DNA of 64,000 nucleotides from Escherichia phage MIZ4, in sequence record OR167180. One strand, written 5' to 3'. The notes below the pieces were generated by a model. The model was not told the DNA's origin and did not search any database. It saw only the letters and a list, made by a program, of their open reading frames with translations. Below are positions 2,279 to 58,236 of the stretch, one piece after another. Position 1 is the stretch's first letter, and each line of letters opens with the position of its first letter. The position numbers and the translations under genes were made by a program.

Positions 2279-3252
2279 TATACGAACTCCAATTCAACCA
2301 TTAATTGCATTAACAAAAAGACAATGTGAATCTCTTTATCAGCCGCGTGCGCAAACATCTGATTATTTTCACCGATAATCTCAGTGAGACGAATAATAGA
2401 AGCTGGCTTAACTTGAGTATACAACTCATTATAAAGTTTCTTGACAAATTGAGCGTATGTATTGGTATATCGCGGTGCAAGTTTACGTACATTAGCAAAC
2501 TGTTTAGTTTTAAGTGCTTCCACCACATCGGTTACTTCGGTATTGCTACTTTCGATAACCATGCTCAATACGCCAGCATCAATTTTACCATGTTTAGCGT
2601 AGCGGTCCAAAAGTTTCATTACGCGTCGGAAGTCTGGGAAGTTCTGCTTAACCAGTTCCGCTAATACGCGCATTTCTTCTACTGGCACACCTTCTTTATC
2701 AAGAATTGCTTTACACCGGACGATCATTTCTTTCATCATGCGAAGCTGATCATCTTTAGTCGGAGATCCAAACGTGATGGGATCAAATCGAGATCGTAAC
2801 GCTGGGATAATACCTTCTAGATCGTTTGCTGTGATAATGAATGTCACATTGTTTGAGTATGCCTCAGAGAAACTACGCAAGTGTCTTTGAGCGTCAGCTA
2901 GCCCCGCTCGGTCATACTCATCGATAATAACAACTTTGCCTTTTTCTCGTTTTTCTTCATCGAGTGATACACTCTGCGCAAAGCGTGTAATCTCATCGCG
3001 GATAAAATCAATCTTACAATCTGCGCCGTTAACAAACAGATAATCAACACCCACATCTTCGCAAAGTGCCTTAGCAACGGTTGTTTTACCAGTACCCGGC
3101 GATGGGCTATGCAGGATCATAGAAGGGATTCGGCCTTGCTTAACAATCTGCGCGAAGATCTTTTTATCTGCTTCCGGCAGAATACATTCAGAAATTGATT
3201 TCGGACGGTATTTCTGTTCCCACTGAAACTCATTTTCATTAACACTCAGCAT
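2278..3252 (-). CDS. 44: clamp-loader ATPase gp44 (AAA+)
   Basis: EQKYRPK, Walker A SPSPGTGKTT, VIIDEYDR; start taken at MLSVNENEF by comparison with T4. Confidence 0.85.
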   Translation of the reverse strand: MLSVNENEFQWEQKYRPKSISECILPEADKKIFAQIVKQGRIPSMILHSPSPGTGKTTVAKALCEDVGVDYLFVNGADCKIDFIRDEITRFAQSVSLDEEKREKGKVVIIDEYDRAGLADAQRHLRSFSEAYSNNVTFIITANDLEGIIPALRSRFDPITFGSPTKDDQLRMMKEMIVRCKAILDKEGVPVEEMRVLAELVKQNFPDFRRVMKLLDRYAKHGKIDAGVLSMVIESSNTEVTDVVEALKTKQFANVRKLAPRYTNTYAQFVKKLYNELYTQVKPASIIRLTEIIGENNQMFAHAADKEIHIVFLLMQLMVELEFV

Positions 3253-3317
3253 ATAATCACCTCTCACAAATTACATCATTAAAACGGGGAGTATTTACAC
3301 TCCCCACAAACATTATA

Positions 3318-4004
3318 TTAGTCGGTGTAGCTGGAGTCAAGGTCACACGCGATCATATAAGATACGGTTTCACTTGCCAGCCATACAGCCTTACGGCGAG
3401 TGAAGCTCAGTTTGTAATCGCCGAAGTCAGTAGCAACCAGTTTCATGTTATCTTTACGAATAAAGAAATGGAAGTCTGCGGTTCCGGTATATTCGCCCAT
3501 ATCAAGACAAAACATCTCATTAGGATTATTTTTGTCAATCTCTTCCCAACCTTTGATCATCAGACGACCATCAATCGGAAGAAATTCAAGGCGGTCCACT
3601 TTAAGCTGATTGCTCATTTTCATAAGCTGTTTCAGATCGTCGTTGCTCAGTTCGTAATCTACATCGCTTGCAGGTGGAGTAACTCGGCCTTTCGGTGATA
3701 CGATAGCGGCAGCACTAGCACCAGGATAATTAATTTTCAGACGATCATTAGACACACGAATGTTTCCGGTGCGGTCATCAACCGTAATATCTGCTTCATC
3801 GCCCACCAGATTCAGAATACCCAAGAAAGAGTTAAGATCATAGATCCCAATTTCGTGTTCCAGTTCTTGATTCAGAGTCGCTTCACCATATACAACGTTT
3901 GTCATGTTTTTGGTGATCAGGACGTTTCCTTTTTTCAGGATGATACCTGGGTTAATAGCGGAAAAGTTTTTCAGGGTAGCAATGGTTTCTTTAGTCAGTT
4001 TCAT
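3318..4004 (-). CDS. 45: sliding clamp gp45
   Basis: 228 aa; MKLTKETIATLKNFSAINPGI versus T4 MKLSKDTTALLKNFATINSGI; IYDLNSFLGILNLV. Confidence 0.85.
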   Translation of the reverse strand: MKLTKETIATLKNFSAINPGIILKKGNVLITKNMTNVVYGEATLNQELEHEIGIYDLNSFLGILNLVGDEADITVDDRTGNIRVSNDRLKINYPGASAAAIVSPKGRVTPPASDVDYELSNDDLKQLMKMSNQLKVDRLEFLPIDGRLMIKGWEEIDKNNPNEMFCLDMGEYTGTADFHFFIRKDNMKLVATDFGDYKLSFTRRKAVWLASETVSYMIACDLDSSYTD

Positions 4005-5055: not shown

Positions 5056-6724
5056 TCATTTCAGTGAATCGCCCACGTTTAACCATCTTGAGATGACGGC
5101 TAAAATCATCAGGGTTATGGTCACGATGGCTGATAATATACACGTTATCATCTAACTTGTCAATGATGGAATCAAGTGCTTTTACGCCTTGAACGTCCGT
5201 AGCCCCATCATAAATTTCGTCGAGTACCAACAAAGAAATATTAGTACCAGATACCTTACCAGCAACATCACGCCATGTAAAGAGCATCGCAAGGTCAATA
5301 CGTGCTTTTTCTCCTTGACTGAATGATGTATACGAAAACGATTCACGCCCCCGTGATTTAATTGTTTCGTTAAACTCTTCATCTAACGTAAAGATATAAT
5401 CAGCTTCCATGATATCAAGATAATACGCAATCCGATCATTGAAATATGGAATATATTTCTTGACGATAGACGCCTTAACACCGGAATCCTTCAACATTTC
5501 TGTTACAAATCCACGGTGATATTTTTCAAGAACTAGCTTTGATTTTTCATTAGTAATCTCTACCAGTTCGTGTTCCAGTTTAGCAAGTTCTTCGGAATTG
5601 TCAACCCTTTCTTTTTGTAATTCCTGAATTGCTTTCTGGATCTGTTTAGCCCGACCTACAGATGCCGTTAAATTCGCTCTCTGTGACTCTATAGCGCGTT
5701 TAATTTCCAAGACCTTAGTTTGTGCTGTCTGGAAAGAATTGGCCTTCTCTGCGTATTCTACGCGTTTCTCGTCAATCAGAGACAGTTTATGTTCTGCTTG
5801 TGCTTTTTGTTCGCGTACAGCTTGATCATTACCCTGAATGATCGGTTGTGTGCACGTAGGACAGACCCCGCCTTTCTCATGCATATGAATAACACGGTCA
5901 AAGTTCTGGATCTGCGCACCAATCTGTGCGATAGCCGTATTAATTTTAGCCAATGCCGCGCTAGGATCTTCCGGCATAACAACAGCCAATAGCTCATCGG
6001 TCAAGCGCGTTTCTTCGGCTTTAAATGCTTTAGCCGATTCTACCTCTTTATCATACATATTCTGTAAACGCTGGAGATTCTCGGCACTCGCCTTGCTAGC
6101 GTCTTCTATGTACTTTTTATGAGTGTTGATTTGTTGCTGAACGTGATTAGCTTTCATTTCCTGCATTTGGATATTCTGGGTTATCTCGCGCACATACGCT
6201 TTATTCAGTTTATCCATTTCTCCCAATGTGGCAATATCAAGCAAATCCTCGACCAGCTTACGGCGACCCGCTGCCGGAAGACTCATAAACGGAACATAAC
6301 CAGCAGTGCCTAAAACAACGATCTGTTTAAAGCTGGCTAGGTTCATGCCTATGATACCTTCAAAATATTCCTGAAAGTCTTTGGTGCTTGCGCTCTCGTC
6401 GATCTTTTGTCCGTCGCGATGCACTTCGAATACTTCCGGCTTTTGTCCACGTTTAATATAAAATTCTTTCCCGTCCAGTTCAAACCAGACTTCGACTAAC
6501 AGTTTCTTTTTGTTGACGCTGTTAATCAATTGGCCTTTCTTGATACTACGAAACGGTTTACCAAACAATACAAAGCAAAGCGCCTCAATCATGGTCGATT
6601 TACCAGCACCGTTAACACCAGTGATTAGTGTCTTTTTGAATCCGTCTAGCTGAATCTCAACAGGTTCAGCACCCACGCTCATTATATTTTGATAGCGCAA
6701 GGTTTTAAAATTTAACTTTGCCAT
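5042..6724 (-). CDS. 46: recombination endonuclease subunit gp46 (SbcC/Rad50-like ATPase)
   Basis: NIMSVG, Walker A GVNGAGKST, long coiled-coil middle, C-terminal YIFTLDEEFNETIKSRGRE..FSQGEKARIDLAMLFTWRD..LVLDE matches T4 gp46 almost residue for residue. Confidence 0.85.
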   Translation of the reverse strand: MAKLNFKTLRYQNIMSVGAEPVEIQLDGFKKTLITGVNGAGKSTMIEALCFVLFGKPFRSIKKGQLINSVNKKKLLVEVWFELDGKEFYIKRGQKPEVFEVHRDGQKIDESASTKDFQEYFEGIIGMNLASFKQIVVLGTAGYVPFMSLPAAGRRKLVEDLLDIATLGEMDKLNKAYVREITQNIQMQEMKANHVQQQINTHKKYIEDASKASAENLQRLQNMYDKEVESAKAFKAEETRLTDELLAVVMPEDPSAALAKINTAIAQIGAQIQNFDRVIHMHEKGGVCPTCTQPIIQGNDQAVREQKAQAEHKLSLIDEKRVEYAEKANSFQTAQTKVLEIKRAIESQRANLTASVGRAKQIQKAIQELQKERVDNSEELAKLEHELVEITNEKSKLVLEKYHRGFVTEMLKDSGVKASIVKKYIPYFNDRIAYYLDIMEADYIFTLDEEFNETIKSRGRESFSYTSFSQGEKARIDLAMLFTWRDVAGKVSGTNISLLVLDEIYDGATDVQGVKALDSIIDKLDDNVYIISHRDHNPDDFSRHLKMVKRGRFTEMNVNI

Positions 6725-8131: not shown

Positions 8132-9157
8132 CTAACTTTTTGCGCTATTTACTTCGGCTAAAAGTTCATCAGAAATACGCTTGACCGCCGCAAGTTCTTC
8201 CGGTTCTAGGTTTTGTTCTTCCAGATATTCATAGACCATCTGAATAGTGCTTTTAACTTCAATAACACCTGTTTCCTGTGATGCGCTACTCTCCAGCTTA
8301 TGGACCACTTTTAGCTTGTGTACAACGGCCTCTAACGCGCTTTCTAACTTAGTTAACCCATTATCAGCGACCGTTGCGATAAGACGCACACTAAGCCCCT
8401 TAAAGCGTTCTACATCGATTTTATCATCTGACGGGTAAGTGATACGCACATGATAAGTTTTGTCATTCTGGATAAACTCTTTTTTGTGTGTATCGGTATC
8501 GAATACCCAAAACCCACGCGGATCGTTTTCGTCACCCGCCGTTAGTGTGTATGGTGTACCTATATACGTTACGTTACCGCCATCACTGATAGTATGAAAG
8601 TGACCCGAAAACACTTCACGGTATTTCTTTAGGAAGTCCGCGCTATAACCTTCGGATTTTAGCCCTTTATAGAAATAGTAACCGGACAATTCCCAATGGC
8701 CTACACAATATTCGCTGAATGAGTTTTGAATAAACTCTAAAATCTCTGATTTATTGTCATCACAAAACCACGGGAACAGATCAAATGATACACCATCAAA
8801 GGTGACTGTTTCCGGCTTATCAATAACCTTAATGCAATCATACTGGCTTAACACTTCACGCGGTGCGTTAGGCTGGATCTTGTTTCGTTTAAACATATCA
8901 TGATTCCCAACCGTGATATAACAAGTAATACCAGCCTCTTCCAGTAGCGGGATGATTTTCGTTCTATTAAAACGCATAGTTGCATGTGTGATTGCTTTTC
9001 GGCAATCAAACCAGTCCCCTGTCTGAATCCATGCCTTAATATTATGTTTTTTTGAATAATCGACTGCCTTTTTAATAGTATCAAGAATATACTCATGTAT
9101 CCACGGATCATCGTTGCCGATACCAGTATGCAGATCACCCAAAAGCAAAATTTTCAT
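8132..9157 (-). CDS. 47: recombination nuclease gp47 (Mre11-like phosphoesterase)
   Basis: MKILLLGDLH, TGDWFD, VGNHD, GHWE, GHFH, GTPYTLTAGDENDPRGFW match T4 gp47. Confidence 0.85.
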   Translation of the reverse strand: MKILLLGDLHTGIGNDDPWIHEYILDTIKKAVDYSKKHNIKAWIQTGDWFDCRKAITHATMRFNRTKIIPLLEEAGITCYITVGNHDMFKRNKIQPNAPREVLSQYDCIKVIDKPETVTFDGVSFDLFPWFCDDNKSEILEFIQNSFSEYCVGHWELSGYYFYKGLKSEGYSADFLKKYREVFSGHFHTISDGGNVTYIGTPYTLTAGDENDPRGFWVFDTDTHKKEFIQNDKTYHVRITYPSDDKIDVERFKGLSVRLIATVADNGLTKLESALEAVVHKLKVVHKLESSASQETGVIEVKSTIQMVYEYLEEQNLEPEELAAVKRISDELLAEVNSAKS

Positions 9158-9172
9158 ATTATACATAATCTC

Positions 9173-9727
9173 CTAAAAATTTTTAACACCATATTCACCA
9201 AAATAAAGATCAACCGCTTTGTCATAAGCTCTGGCCGCATCTTCTTCGTTGACATAATACCCAAGAGATATTAGTTTATCATTATTTCGTATTCTTGCAA
9301 CCCATTTCTTCGTATGTTTATGCCAGCTAACCCCTTTATACTTGCTTGCTTTATTCTTGTACTTTCCAACGTTACAAGCATTTTTCTTTGCGTCGGACTC
9401 TCTAAGATTGCGTGGTGCGTTGTTTAAAGGATTTCGGTCTATATGATCTATAATTTCTGGTTGTGTTCCATGCTCAAGAAACCATACAATACGATGTACA
9501 TATGGCTTTAAAACCCTCCCATTATCCATAACAATTGCAATTTGGAGATGATCCTGACTTTTAAAAGTTTTTACTTTATCTCCTGCCTTATAAAACTTTC
9601 CTTCGTAATTCTTTCCTCCGGCTCGGCTATTCTTTAAATGATAAAGAATACCATCGTCGTCATGTCTATATCTTTCTCGTATAATTCGTTGCGTTTCTTC
9701 ATCCCACAATTTGGAACGTCTACTCAT
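9173..9727 (-). CDS. freestanding HNH homing endonuclease with C-terminal AP2-type DNA-binding domain
   Basis: HNH motif IDHIDRNPLNN; AP2-like YKGVSWHKHTKKWVARIR..LGYY..EEDAARAYDKA; sits where T4 has a-gt. Confidence 0.75.
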   Translation of the reverse strand: MSRRSKLWDEETQRIIRERYRHDDDGILYHLKNSRAGGKNYEGKFYKAGDKVKTFKSQDHLQIAIVMDNGRVLKPYVHRIVWFLEHGTQPEIIDHIDRNPLNNAPRNLRESDAKKNACNVGKYKNKASKYKGVSWHKHTKKWVARIRNNDKLISLGYYVNEEDAARAYDKAVDLYFGEYGVKNF

Positions 9728-9817
9728 AGTCTCTTCCTCTCTTCGTTTTCGATGCTCTCACTATATCACAGAAAAATAAAAAGGGAAACCCCTTTCAGAG
9801 TCTCCCTTATAAAGCCA

Positions 9818-10105
9818 TTACAGCATACTTAATACCGTTTGCCGTGTACTAATCCACATAGCAGAAAGCAGTTCTGGTGTGTGTGGCTGTTTGTAGATAT
9901 CACGTAATTTTCCGATAGCGTAGATATACGCATCACGATTATCATCGATGATAGCTTGCTCAGCCCACCGCTTAAGTCGTGCAATCTCTCGCGAGTTCTT
10001 ACGCAAGATCTTTTCCGCTTTCTTAGCGGCTTTAGCCTCTAGTTCTGCTTGTACTTTGTCTACTTCATTCACTGCAATCTTGTCATGCTGTTCATTGCAA
10101 GTCAT
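9818..10105 (-). CDS. hypothetical protein
   Basis: 95-aa ORF. Confidence 0.35.
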   Translation of the reverse strand: MTCNEQHDKIAVNEVDKVQAELEAKAAKKAEKILRKNSREIARLKRWAEQAIIDDNRDAYIYAIGKLRDIYKQPHTPELLSAMWISTRQTVLSML

Positions 10106-46859: not shown

Positions 46860-46867
46860 TATAAATA
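46860..46867 (+). promoter_or_regulatory. T4-type late promoter TATAAATA upstream of gene 53
   Basis: exact TATAAATA about 32 nt before the gp53 ATG in the divergent 4/53 intergenic region. Confidence 0.6.
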
Positions 46868-47465: not shown

Positions 47466-49265
47466 ATGCTAATGTTTAATAACTCCGTTAAATGGTTTAC
47501 CGGAATTGTAGAAAACAGGGAAGACCCATTAATGCTGGGGCGTGTTCAGGTTAGGATTCATGGTATACATCCCTCGCTATCCGCACACGGTGACATTCAA
47601 GGTCTTCCAACCGAAGATCTATTATGGATTACGCCAGTACAAGATATTACAAGCGCGGCGATCTCCGGTATAGGTCAAAGCCCTACTGGTATTGTTGAAG
47701 GTTCAATGGTATTTGGTTTGGCTTTAGATGAACGTTATTTAAACTGCGTTATTCTTGGTACTATTGCCGGACAATATACAGAGAAACCACTTACTACAGA
47801 GGGTTTTTGCGACCCTTCTGGTGCATATCCTCGTTATATTGGTAATGATGTTAATATTCTTGCTCGTGGCGGTATTAACCCAGAAACCGGACAAACAACA
47901 AAACCTGATAGTGTCTATATTCGAGATGAAAACACTGGAGTTGCAGTAAATCCAGACGACGAGCCATTAGACCAAATTCCGGTTGATGATAATCCTGATT
48001 TTACAATCGAAAAAATGCTGCGGGGCGATGAGGGATATCGCGAGAAATGGTATCTTGATTCAGAAGGATATCCGACAATAGGCATCGGGCATTTGATCAT
48101 TTATAAGAAAACCAGTGATCTGGGTATTATCAATAATGAACTTTCTAAGCTGGTAGGGCGTGAAGTTACAAACGGAAGACTTACCGCCGAAGAAGTTAGT
48201 AAAGTATTTGCTGACGATATAGAAAAGACTCGTCGTGATATGCGCAAACATCCACGAATTGCACCTGTCTATAATAAATGTAATGCCTCACGTCGTATGG
48301 CATTAGAAAATATGGCGTTTCAAATGGGTGTTGGAGGATTGGGTAAATTTAAGAATAGTCTTGCTGCGATGTTAGCGGAAGAATGGAAACAAGCCTATGA
48401 TGGATTACGTCAATCGGTATGGGCTAACCAAACTCCAGGACGCTCCAGCCGTGTTTCTAAAATTATTTTAACTGGTAACTTAGAATCATATGGCGTAATT
48501 GCTCCAAAGAAAGAGGAATCAATTTCGGATGATCCGCGAGCACGTTTGAGAAATGCCCGTATTGCTGCCTATAAGACGCAGAGAGCAGAAGAAGACCCAG
48601 AAGCACCGTTTACCCCACAAGACACACGAATCATGTTTAAAGAGCCTAAGAGTTCGTATTCTGCGAGGTATCCTTATAACCATGTGTACGAGTCAGAGAG
48701 CGGTCATATTATCGAGATTGATGATACTCCTTCTCATGAGCGATATCATCGTAAACATCCTTCTGGTACATTTGAAGAAACCAGACCGGACGGAACGAGG
48801 GTAGAAAAGATTGAAGGTGATGACTATTTGATCGTTAAGCAAGGCCGCAAAGTCAACGTTAAAGGCAATCTGCAAGTTGTTGTTGAAGGTGACGCGCAAG
48901 TTTATTATATGGGTAATGTAATGCAAACCGTTGATGGTAACGTCACGGAATTTATTCGTGGCAATGTTAATCAGACCGTTGAGGGTACAGCTAATATGCA
49001 TGTTGTAGGTGATGTTACCGCACAGCTTGACGCTAATTTGACGGCTAACGTCAAGGGTAATGCTGAATTAATGATCGAGGGTAACACTACCGAAACAATT
49101 AAAGGTAACTATGATTTAACCGTTGAGGGTAATTTTAATATGACCGTCAATGGCACTAAATCAGATCAGGTTAATGGTGACTGGTCCCGTAATTGTGGTG
49201 CAAGCGTTAAAGATATTGCATCTGGTACAGTTAAAATTGATGGTAGCCGTATTGATCTTGGGTGA
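47466..49265 (+). CDS. 5: baseplate hub / tail lysozyme gp5
   Basis: N-terminal OB region, T4-lysozyme-like EGYREKWYLDSEGYPTIGIGH, C-terminal beta-helix with VxGN repeats. Confidence 0.9.
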   Translation: MLMFNNSVKWFTGIVENREDPLMLGRVQVRIHGIHPSLSAHGDIQGLPTEDLLWITPVQDITSAAISGIGQSPTGIVEGSMVFGLALDERYLNCVILGTIAGQYTEKPLTTEGFCDPSGAYPRYIGNDVNILARGGINPETGQTTKPDSVYIRDENTGVAVNPDDEPLDQIPVDDNPDFTIEKMLRGDEGYREKWYLDSEGYPTIGIGHLIIYKKTSDLGIINNELSKLVGREVTNGRLTAEEVSKVFADDIEKTRRDMRKHPRIAPVYNKCNASRRMALENMAFQMGVGGLGKFKNSLAAMLAEEWKQAYDGLRQSVWANQTPGRSSRVSKIILTGNLESYGVIAPKKEESISDDPRARLRNARIAAYKTQRAEEDPEAPFTPQDTRIMFKEPKSSYSARYPYNHVYESESGHIIEIDDTPSHERYHRKHPSGTFEETRPDGTRVEKIEGDDYLIVKQGRKVNVKGNLQVVVEGDAQVYYMGNVMQTVDGNVTEFIRGNVNQTVEGTANMHVVGDVTAQLDANLTANVKGNAELMIEGNTTETIKGNYDLTVEGNFNMTVNGTKSDQVNGDWSRNCGASVKDIASGTVKIDGSRIDLG

Positions 49266-49273
49266 GGTAACTA

Positions 49274-49843
49274 ATGGTTGAAATTCTTCCGATGAGTTCA
49301 AAATTGGAGGATATCAGCGAGCGAGAAATCTTTGAGGTGGTGTTCTCTTATAAAGCAACGCCACCGGATGCAAATACCACATACACGATTAAAGAGTTTA
49401 AGATCAGCGAGTATCGCCCTAATAAGGGCGTTACCGTTGAAGAAACTAAAATATCTGGTGAGTATCGGGATAGTTTTTCGCTTGGCGCGGATTCTCTTAA
49501 ATATATAACGAAAGATAGAATTAAAAAATCTGCCGGAAGTTTTGATGATTTACCAGATCCAACTACCGCAGATCTATATTATTTTAACGCTCCTACACGT
49601 CTACAGGAGGTTTATACTTATAAAGTAACCCTAACCTATATCCAATCTGTTTCAGAGTCTTCTGGTGGTTCTGATGAAGGAAATAGTGGTGGTTCCAATA
49701 GCCGAGAGGGTGCTGGTGAAACTAATCCGCCTCCGGTAGTAACCGAGCACACAATAGAGAAAGTTTATACTCAAACCGTTTTTGGAAATTGGGATGTGTG
49801 GAGTAAACAGTTAAGAGATTATGTTAGAAGAAGTGAGGGATAA
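49274..49843 (+). CDS. hypothetical protein (5.1 position)
   Basis: 189-aa ORF following gp5. Confidence 0.4.
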   Translation: MVEILPMSSKLEDISEREIFEVVFSYKATPPDANTTYTIKEFKISEYRPNKGVTVEETKISGEYRDSFSLGADSLKYITKDRIKKSAGSFDDLPDPTTADLYYFNAPTRLQEVYTYKVTLTYIQSVSESSGGSDEGNSGGSNSREGAGETNPPPVVTEHTIEKVYTQTVFGNWDVWSKQLRDYVRRSEG

Positions 49844-49844
49844 T

Positions 49845-50384
49845 ATGATTGAAGTAATTCATTACACCAAAGAAGATGAAATTTTATATAATAGACTACA
49901 TGAACTATTTTATGAAGTTGACGGAAAGGTTTATAGAAGGTTCTCTCGTGGACGTTCTAAAGCCGGAAGTCTAGTTGGTGGATTGAAGATAAATCCATGT
50001 GGATATAGATATTGGAGACTTGCTGTTGATGGTAAAGAGTTTCAGAGGTCTCATGTTGTTTATCATATGCATCACGGACACACTCCGAGAAAACCACTAC
50101 AAATAGATCATATTAACACAAACTCCCTTGACGACCGAGTTAGCAATTTAAGACCAGCAACCGTTACCCAACAAATGTACAACCAAAATAAACAATCCGA
50201 TTGCACATCTTCATATATTGGTGTTAATTGGAATAAAAATTCCAAAAAATGGGAAGCTAGAATTAGAGCTAATGGAAAACGAATCCGTTTAGGTCTATTT
50301 GATAATGAAATTGACGCTGCGATTGCCTATAACACCGCTGCATTATCTAGAGATTCAAAAGTTAACAAATTAAACAATGTATGA
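49845..50384 (+). CDS. freestanding HNH homing endonuclease with AP2 domain
   Basis: HNH QIDHINTNSLDDRVSNLR; AP2-like YIGVNWNKNSKKWEARIRANGKRIRLG..EIDAAIAYN; start at the second Met, which has the GAGGG RBS. Confidence 0.75.
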   Translation: MIEVIHYTKEDEILYNRLHELFYEVDGKVYRRFSRGRSKAGSLVGGLKINPCGYRYWRLAVDGKEFQRSHVVYHMHHGHTPRKPLQIDHINTNSLDDRVSNLRPATVTQQMYNQNKQSDCTSSYIGVNWNKNSKKWEARIRANGKRIRLGLFDNEIDAAIAYNTAALSRDSKVNKLNNV

Positions 50385-50399
50385 AGATGGGGGTGTTTA

Positions 50400-50693
50400 A
50401 TGGCTGGATTATCCTACGATAAAGCTAAAACTACAGGGCACGGAAACTACCCACCTACTGTAATTAATGCAACTCAATCTAAGGTATTTGTTGAGGGTAT
50501 CCCTGTATTAGTCGAAGGAGACCCAATTACACCACATACAAAAACAACAAAGCCTTATGATACACACGGGGGAACTACGGTCGCCAGTACCCCGAAAGTA
50601 TTTGTTACCGGAAAGAAAGCAATTCAAATGGCAGATCGTATTAGCTGTGGCGATACCGTCGCTATGGCATCACCGAAGGTATTCATAAAATGA
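50400..50693 (+). CDS. 5.4: PAAR-repeat spike-tip protein gp5.4
   Basis: 97 aa, same length and position as T4 gp5.4; PAAR-like alternation. Confidence 0.65.
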
Positions 50694-52594
50694 CAAAGCA
50701 AAAGATTACACAAATTCCTGATATTTTTAATGCTGCTACATTCGATGAAATTAAAAGCGCATTAACAGACTGGATGAGAAACCAGGAAGAATTTAAAGAT
50801 TTTGATTTTAATGGTGCTGGTATTAACGTATTGATGGACTTGCTCGCATATAATACCCTTTATATTCAGCAATTCGCCAACGCCGCGCTATATGAATCTT
50901 TTATCAGAACGGCAATTAAGCGTAGTTCAGTTGTTCAAGCCGCGCAAGATTTAGGATATTTGCCAGCAAGTAAAACTAGTGCATCGACTACAATTATGTT
51001 GCATGTATCACATCCGCGAAATCCGGCAAGTATTCGAATCCCACGAGGAACTAAATTTATTGCAAGTGTGGATCGCCAGACGTCTTATCCGTTTGTGACT
51101 ACAGAAGACGTTGTGAGCGTTTTAGGTTCAATTGGTTTATATACGCCTATGCTTAAAGTCGCACAAGGTCGTATTGTTCGTACAGAAATGTTATTTGATC
51201 CGAAGAAACAAATTCTGATCCGCGATCCTGATATTGACCGCGCTCAGGTTAAGTTGTGGGTAGACGGCGCTGAATGGAAAGACTGGACGCGAGAAAGCAT
51301 TGTTAATGCAACTGGCGCTAGTAATATTTTCTATATGCGTGAAACCGTAGACGGTCATACAGAAATCTTCTTTGGTGAGGGTGAATCAACTTTATCTGCT
51401 GCTGGCGGTGCACTGGAAGCAAATTATATTGGTGGACTTAAGCCGTCAACTGGCGCTAATATTGTTATCGAATATATCAGCACTAAAGGCGCGGAAGCAA
51501 ACGGTTCAGTTAATTTCACATACGCGGATACCCTTGCATCTATCTCTATTGTTAAAATTATTGAGAATCCGACAAATGACCGTGATTATGTCGGTGCGGA
51601 TGGTGGTGGTGATCCTGAATCAATCGAACGTATCCGTGAACTTGCTCCGGTAATGCGTGAATCTCAGCGTCGTTGTGTAACTGCTTCCGACTATGAGGCT
51701 TTTGTGTCTAGCCGTTTTGGTAGTATTGTTCAGGCGGTACAATGTTTCACCGACCGAGAAAAACCGGGTTATGCTTTTGTTGCTGTTAAGCCTAAATCTG
51801 GCTTGCGCTTGACAACCGTTCAAAAAGAAGATATGCGGGATTATCTGGCAAAATATAACCTTGCCCCTATCACGCCGAGCATCATTGACCCTAACTATCT
51901 GTATATTAAACAGAATATTAAAGTTTCCTATTCAATCAACGACTTGTCAGAATCAGAGCAGTGGTTGCGCGGTGCGGTTATTGATCAGATTGATGCATAT
52001 TATACCGACGAAGTGGAAATTTTTAACCAGACCTTTAGTAAGTCTAAAATGCTTGCGCGTATTGACAAAGCTGATGTATCTGTGATAGGTTCTAGTGCAG
52101 AAATCGAGATGGTGCGAGAGATCGACAACTTCTATAAAGCACCGATGGCTGGAATCAAGTTTTTAAACCAGTATAAGAGCGGAATCAAGTCTAGTTCATT
52201 CAACTTCGAAAAGGACGACAAGCAATATCCGATCCATTATGTAAGTACAGAAATGAACAAAGAATCCGGTTTAGCTAAATTGCTGGTTGGACCTTTCCCT
52301 GTTGATTCTACAATCGCTTTACCGCACTATTCCGGCACTGATTTTGATAAAGAGGTTATCGACGGTGCGGACCTATACTTTGAGGTTGGAGAGGTTCAGC
52401 ATTATGACGACCTTATTTCATGGGATCTGGGTAAACTGAATATCAATAGCGATCGCTTTACTGGTTCATATATTGAGTTGACAGCTAAACCGATTGCTGA
52501 TAACATCTTTACTAAAGACGGTTCTTTGATCGTGTTTGAAAACGATCTCCGTCCTCAGTACACAACTATTAGTCTGGAGGCAATTGCTCAATGA
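50690..52594 (+). CDS. 6: baseplate wedge protein gp6
   Basis: 634 aa in the T4 gene 6 position; overlapping start/stop with neighbours. Confidence 0.75.
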
Positions 52595-58228: not shown

Positions 58229-58236
58229 TATAAATA
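58229..58236 (+). promoter_or_regulatory. T4-type late promoter TATAAATA upstream of gene 9
   Basis: exact TATAAATA about 27 nt before the gp9 ATG. Confidence 0.6.

Follow-up and report, generated by a model that had tools for sequence, protein, structure and literature searches.

The window, a 64,000-nucleotide stretch of DNA from Escherichia phage MIZ4 (record OR167180), harbors an intact open reading frame at 49845–50384 on the plus strand, which encodes 179 amino acids followed by TGA and whose product is assigned to phrog_99. The local gene order is 53, 5, 5.1, the endonuclease ORF, 5.4, 6 and 7, as established from Pfam, PHROGs and the annotations of RB49 and Phi1. Over 47466–52594, the sequence matches Escherichia phage MIZ5 (OR167181) at 100% identity and about 57 other records of Krischvirus, the RB49-like phages of the T4 type, at 97–99%. 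Among the neighbors, gp53 was recognized by PF11246, gene 5.1 (49274–49843, plus strand, 189 aa, called 5.1 in the RB49 annotation) belongs to phrog_1168 and ends in RRSEG before its stop versus the ancestral HRGV, and gene 5.4 (50400–50693, plus strand) encodes the PAAR spike-tip protein (PF05488), in keeping with the PAAR-like downstream neighbor named in the first-pass annotation, with a 5′ end that is the same as in insert-free genomes. The TAA stop of 5.1 at 49841–49843 is followed by one T and then by the endonuclease ATG at 49845 (TAA-T-ATG), so the start of the endonuclease gene does not overlap the upstream stop, contrary to what had been claimed, and the two are separated by one nucleotide. 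The Shine-Dalgarno sequence GAGGG lies at 49835–49839 on the plus strand, 5 nt before this ATG, and the Ec_Makalu_003 record marks it as a ribosome binding site. A second in-frame ATG is found at 49821 within conserved 5.1 sequence; the 187-aa ORF beginning there, as in the metagenomic cluster P0001, would overlap 5.1 and was dropped in favor of the start at 49845, which is favored by the Shine-Dalgarno GAGGG, by the N-terminal end of the closest homologue and by the start given in each of the five GenBank annotations.

Alignments with nine insert-free genomes delimit an inserted cassette of 560 bp (49825–50384, plus strand), comprising a 20-nt leader and the endonuclease ORF, and the query coverage in genomes without the insert is 89%. 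The leader contains new codons for the 5.1 tail, the TAA stop and the Shine-Dalgarno sequence. In insert-free genomes such as RB49 and Phi1, gene 5.1 ends with GATTATGTACATAGGGGTGTTTAATGGCTGG and its stop overlaps the start of 5.4 (TAATG), while in the carriers the 560 bp (49825–50384) directly follow GATTATGT. Insertion took place five codons short of the end of 5.1 and replaced its 3′ end, so that 5.1 terminates in RRSEG and not in HRGV (LRDYVHRGV and stop in RB49 versus LRDYVRRSEG and stop in MIZ5). The earlier placement between 5.1 and 5.4 is thus confirmed as to the two flanking genes, but the insertion point lies within the last five codons of 5.1 and is not strictly intergenic. Downstream of the cassette, at 50385–50402 on the plus strand and outside any annotated ORF, a remnant of the ancestral 5.1 3′ end (AGATGGGGGTGTTTAATG from ACATAGGGGTGTTTAATG) still supplies 5.4 with its G-rich ribosome site and with the overlap of stop and start (TAATG). 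Neither neighbor is damaged, because the cassette brings its own 5.1 codons, stop and Shine-Dalgarno sequence, and the displaced 5.1 tail, with the ATG of 5.4 kept, serves as the ribosome site of 5.4. The cassette has a GC content of 35% versus 40–43% in the flanking genes, and the GC3 of the endonuclease gene is 23% versus 30–35% in its neighbors; judged by these values, the composition of the insert is foreign.

The 540-bp ORF was found in six records only, representing five phages, namely MIZ5 from Russia, G5211 and G37-3 from Germany, KFS-EC from South Korea and Ec_Makalu_003 from Nepal. Of the approximately 51 sequenced phages of Krischvirus, 5 therefore carry the cassette, always at an identical site, and about 46 lack it, which bears out the suggestion that related phages are without the insert. 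A further 50 or so Krischvirus records align with the flanks but lack approximately 560 bp. Three states of the junction were observed, with five carriers showing identical junctions, about 40 phages being empty, and six containing a different endonuclease gene. The closest flanks beside MIZ5 are those of the insert-free phage FL20 (99.0%), and the other carriers reach at most 98.3%, an incongruence that may speak for mobility. The 5.1 tail remnant and the TAATG overlap preserved downstream of the cassette show the insert-free arrangement to be ancestral. Presence and absence are, formally, all that is observed, and the same pattern could be read as the loss, in most Krischvirus lineages, of a gene that the baseplate cluster possessed ancestrally. 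This reading is extremely improbable and was rejected on the retained remnant, since the carriers keep the ancestral 5.1 terminal codons and TAATG as a duplicated-in-function relic downstream of the cassette; the foreign composition of the insert and the carriers' failure to share their closest flanks also speak against it, and under loss the same junction would have had to be re-created about 46 times, or a single time with massive recombination afterwards. Outside the five Krischvirus carriers, no relatives with more than 60% identity were found in database searches, and the wider family (phrog_99) is very large, with 2317 phage records and 110,669 cluster representatives at E ≤ 0.001. The annotation "HNH endonuclease" is already present in MIZ5, KFS-EC (RefSeq), G5211 and Makalu_003, and ORF136 of Ec_Makalu_003 has been described as an HNH-type homing endonuclease missing from Phi1 (PMC11611945). 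The record of the carrier G37-3 splits gene 6 into two CDS (L006:4725–6374 and 6337–6627, spanning L006:4725–6627), which points to a frameshift or an error of sequencing there.

The encoded protein exhibits the HNH-AP2 architecture that had been proposed from the sequence at first reading. Pfam detected HNH_3 (PF13392; E 2.2e-9, 37.2 bits against a cutoff of 24.8) and AP2 (PF00847; E 9.1e-8, 32.7 bits, slightly below the cutoff of 33.3), and the PHROGs family phrog_99, "HNH endonuclease", matched residues 9–167 with E 4e-45. A single-sequence search of the PDB returned AP2 domains only and no HNH structure, the HNH match requiring a profile; with a profile built from 23 homologues, residues 11–120 of I-HmuI (1U3E), the intron-encoded HNH nicking endonuclease of Bacillus phage SPO1, were matched at E 6.5e-12, together with plant AP2 domains at E 4e-16 to 4e-6, among them those of WRI1 (E 3.8e-16), TEM1 (1.8e-9) and AtERF1 (3e-6). 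The AlphaFold2 model (pLDDT 92.2, pTM 0.80) contains three parts, namely an N-terminal helix with a sheet, a beta-beta-alpha unit at residues 86–112, and a three-stranded sheet with a helix at residues 127–169. Residues 9–67 (49869–50045, plus strand) correspond to the N-terminal DNA-contacting part of I-HmuI according to the 1U3E profile alignment, the model and Foldseek. They are followed by the HNH (His-Me finger) nuclease motif at residues 68–113 (50046–50183, plus strand), which is defined by Pfam and by the alignments with homologues and I-HmuI, and in which the beta-beta-alpha-metal fold is present in the model as strands 86–89 and 102–105 and then helix 107–112. The AP2 DNA-binding domain occupies residues 121–169 (50205–50351, plus strand) according to Pfam, the PDB searches, the model and Foldseek, with three modeled strands (127–130, 135–142 and 145–152) and a helix (155–169). 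The top Foldseek match of the model is 1u3e_M (I-HmuI) with a probability of 1.00, and the AP2 matches to the TEM1, WRI1 and AtERF1 domains have the same probability (1gcc_A, with a TM-score normalized to the target of 0.77; 7wq5; 7et4).

The catalytic residues, whose absence would have contradicted the initial assignment, are largely present. D88 (50106–50108), H89 (50109–50111) and N101 (50145–50147), all encoded on the plus strand, align with D74, H75 and N87 of I-HmuI and are invariant in the homologue alignment; the Asp-His dyad provides a metal ligand and the general base, and the Asn (N101) is structural. The second metal ligand, N96 in I-HmuI, is replaced by Gln110 (CAA, 50172–50174, plus strand) in all five phage copies, and this codon is two changes away from an Asn codon. 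Among 138 HNH motifs of the best database relatives, 133 have N at this position and five have Q, the present protein being one of these five, and four other clusters at 50% identity also contain the TQQ motif; Gln at the second metal ligand is thus rare in the family but recurrent. Such a substitution could weaken or abolish the predicted catalysis. R.KpnI is an active HNH enzyme with D148 and Q175 as metal ligands and H149 as general base (PMC3834813), and since it is active with Gln at the equivalent position, Gln110 is regarded as a caveat and not as a refutation.

The five copies differ at 14 positions of the ORF, of which 10 are synonymous and four non-synonymous (R82K, A105V, A142V and N178D), giving a pN/pS of 0.12, and all five are intact with no frameshift or stop. 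The five copies are under purifying selection, and the low pN/pS together with the intact reading frames argue for a functional protein. These values bear directly on an unlikely alternative, in which the insertion is real and the endonuclease gene is catalytically crippled or decaying, its cleavage having been inactivated by the N-to-Q change, and persists through linkage to essential baseplate genes and through the need for a precise deletion to restore the 5.1 tail. The Asn found in 96% of relatives where Q110 sits would fit such decay, as would the arrangement of the junction, in which the cassette holds the only stop and C-terminal tail of 5.1 in carriers, so that its imprecise loss would be costly. 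However, a pN/pS of 0.12 over the whole ORF and the lack of any lesion in five geographically separate isolates stand against decay, the recurrence of TQQ in the four other clusters suggests a tolerated variant and not a lesion, and R.KpnI functions with Gln at this position (PMC3834813).

Differential levels of diversity were also observed along the locus, with synonymous diversity among the carriers of 0.039 for the endonuclease gene, 0.041 for 5.1, 0.091 for gp5 and 0.119 for gp6, a contrast that is based on only 3–8 synonymous differences per pair and in which gp5.1 is also somewhat low among insert-free genomes. The low diversity fits a younger common ancestor of the cassette and its immediate flank, if these small counts are representative. 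At 49802–49811 on the plus strand, 14–23 nt upstream of the insertion point, two sharply distinct alleles are found across Krischvirus, which differ by a cluster of seven substitutions within 10 bp (AGTAAACAGT versus GCGCAGCAAC) and encode Ser-Lys (SK) versus Ala-Gln (AQ) in gp5.1. All five carriers have the SK allele, and among the about 40 phages with an empty junction it occurs in 8 (Fisher p = 0.001, uncorrected for shared ancestry). This AT-rich allele also occurs in four of the six carriers of the different endonuclease gene, referred to here as the W115-type gene, and the other two have the RB49-type allele. The substitution cluster is a candidate co-converted marker or a candidate immune target allele. 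The eight insert-free phages with SK and the two W115-type carriers without it indicate that the allele is neither necessary nor sufficient as evidence of co-conversion or immunity, and they rule it out as a strict immunity marker. Through the seven substitutions a GC-rich patch is lost (GGGCGCAGC becomes GGAGTAAAC), and since GC-rich DNA is reportedly favored by AP2 domains in the HNH-AP2 endonuclease class (PMC10448857), the patch may be considered a candidate recognition element.

The W115-type gene, which shares the junction between 5.1 and 5.4 as its site in W115, Whisky, GEC-3S, Skers, G2494 and JEP8, encodes a 246-aa HNH endonuclease. Its coordinates are 2876–3682 in both W115 (L003:2876–3682) and Whisky (L004:2876–3682), with a junction that equals window position 50407/50408. 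Both genes belong to phrog_99 and form variable inserts at this junction, but the W115-type protein is only 32% identical to the window protein, and its gene has an insertion point 24 nt farther downstream, following ATGGCTGG of 5.4, carries its own GC hairpin (GGCGGGTGTCGATGCCCCGCC) and a near-consensus late-promoter motif (CATAAATA), and is accompanied by a synonymously recoded 5′ end of 5.4. In KFS-EC (L007:4380–4480; window equivalent 50393–50460), the MIZ5-type gene is followed by GGGGTTTTGA, the final bases of the W115-type gene, and by the recoded 5.4 tract with 21 differences, which makes KFS-EC a product of recombination between a MIZ5-type and a W115-type carrier. A more far-reaching proposal, which is tentative and on balance doubtful, is that the 5.1/5.4 junction represents a contested homing site at which two unrelated HNH genes displace each other, that KFS-EC records such a replacement, that Gln marks a sub-lineage whose use of metals or fidelity is altered, as in R.KpnI, or which has a nickase-only or binding-only mode, and that the AP2 domain reads the GGGCGCAGC patch.

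Other endonuclease genes were observed at variable positions. A paralogous HNH-AP2 gene of 184 aa is located at 9173–9727 on the minus strand, adjoining gene 47, and carries the same two Pfam domains. The paralogy noted at first reading is upheld by BLASTP, with E 4e-21 and 43% identity over 96 aa covering the HNH and AP2 part, and no BLAST similarity was detected between the N-terminal approximately 70 aa of the two paralogues (49845–50384 and 9173–9727). These two are the only HNH-AP2 genes in the window, as determined by phmmer against all six-frame ORFs. The region of the second gene is likewise variable, since at least 80% of 8900–10100 is present in only 4 of 58 Krischvirus records, and the 9173–9727 gene is absent from Phi1, MIZ3, KFS-EC and others. 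Whisky contains a third HNH-AP2 gene of 184 aa (L004:3980–4534) between 5.4 and 6, and no Krischvirus paralogue is closer to the window protein than the product of this gene, with 43% identity over the full length. About 3 kb upstream of the junction, MIZ6 exhibits a further variable endonuclease gene, a 696-nt CDS annotated as "homing endonuclease" (L014:184–879, minus strand) between gene 4 (head completion) and gene 53, which is missing from the other loci compared.

A T4-type late promoter motif, TATAAATA, is located at 46860–46867 on the plus strand, 33 nt upstream of gene 53. Four matches to this motif occur in the window, the next on the plus strand after 46860 lying at 58229, and the promoter at 46860 is therefore presumed to be the source of the transcript, as the sole such motif on the plus strand before the endonuclease gene. 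No TATAAATA motif was found within the 560-bp cassette, and sigma-70-like and terminator-like matches were at chance level. A promoter belonging to the endonuclease gene itself was rejected, given the lack of TATAAATA in the cassette and sigma-70-like matches as expected by chance. A hairpin masking the ribosome site in the style of I-TevI and mobE was likewise rejected, as the segment 49790–49890 folds at −13 kcal/mol (z = −1.28) with the Shine-Dalgarno sequence in a loop. With no promoter in the cassette and the only upstream plus-strand late motif at 46860, the endonuclease gene is most likely read on the late baseplate message. Seven free-standing endonuclease genes of T4, segC included, are promoter-less cassettes of this type (PMC2988022). 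The placement in a late operon, along with the purifying selection on the gene, could also be taken to indicate a domesticated DNA-binding or nuclease protein that is useful to the phage and not purely selfish, either by excluding competing Krischvirus genomes or by regulating late baseplate expression through AP2; dual roles and neofunctionalization are on record for homing endonucleases, as I-TevI doubles as an autorepressor (PMC2988022), and the domestication of homing endonucleases has been discussed (PMC10448857). Domestication is nevertheless quite improbable, since the gene is dispensable, being absent from about 90% of otherwise near-identical phages, and the exclusion of competitors would be mechanistically the same act as homing.

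The preferred reading, to which we assign a probability of roughly 0.7, is that the endonuclease gene is a free-standing HNH-AP2 homing endonuclease gene carried on a promoter-less 560-bp cassette. Under this reading, late transcription from the promoter at 46860 would place the gene on the 53-5-5.1-5.4-6 message, and its translation would start, directly after termination of 5.1, from the Shine-Dalgarno sequence of the cassette. During mixed infection, the protein would bind the empty 5.1/5.4 junction of an insert-free phage through AP2 and the N-terminal sheet, possibly recognizing the GC-rich GGGCGCAGC patch that is absent from all carriers, and the HNH site (D88/H89/N101/Q110) would then nick or cut nearby. 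Recombinational repair off the carrier genome would copy the cassette and adjacent markers into the cut genome, and the carriers would be immune, their site being split by the insertion and their flanking bases being different. The patchy distribution could also come from ordinary recombination without endonuclease-driven homing. The gene represents an ordinary selfish gene of a known kind, already annotated, at a junction that repeatedly accommodates such elements in T4-type phages, and for phage biology it reflects the routine traffic of selfish genes in T4-type genomes and introduces no new principle. The junction marks a recombination hotspot in the baseplate operon of phages under therapy development, and the natural pair of rival endonuclease genes at one junction provides a model for competition between endonucleases. 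An HNH-AP2 enzyme with an unusual Gln metal ligand might also serve as a nicking reagent. Unpublished, and of interest to specialists only, are the entry of the cassette within the tail of 5.1, Gln as a metal ligand, the competing W115-type gene and the chimeric sequence of KFS-EC.

Among known systems, the HNH-AP2 homing endonuclease class of phages, cyanobacteria and ciliates was reportedly defined by Magnani et al. in 2004, as cited in PMC1524935 and PMC10448857. The window protein shares with this class an N-terminal HNH_3 and a C-terminal AP2 domain, a length of about 180 aa, the free-standing state and the patchy occurrence in phages, but differs in having Gln, not Asn, as the second metal ligand; Nolan et al. 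2006 recorded the class in RB49 (PMC1524935), an example being RB49ORF040c, and PMC10448857 also describes it in phages. I-HmuI, the top structural match, aligns over about 100 residues covering the N-terminal sheet and the HNH motif and shows the same D-H pair, N, and 21-residue spacing from H to the second ligand, whereas it is intron-encoded, has a C-terminal helix-turn-helix in place of AP2, and carries Asn96 where Gln110 is found here. R.KpnI is a dimeric restriction enzyme without AP2 and of otherwise unrelated sequence, and it constitutes a precedent for the role of Gln only, its D148/H149/Q175 active site using Gln as the second metal ligand (PMC3834813). The T4 mob genes likewise encode HNH enzymes, whose products nick their targets and which are over-inherited in crosses (PMC2988022), although the mob proteins possess zinc-finger-type C-terminal regions versus the AP2 domain here (PMC10448857). 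T4 SegC is a GIY-YIG enzyme of unrelated sequence, but segC corresponds in position and organization, as it lies in the orthologous 5.1/5.3 interval as a promoter-less cassette on the host late message (PMC2988022).
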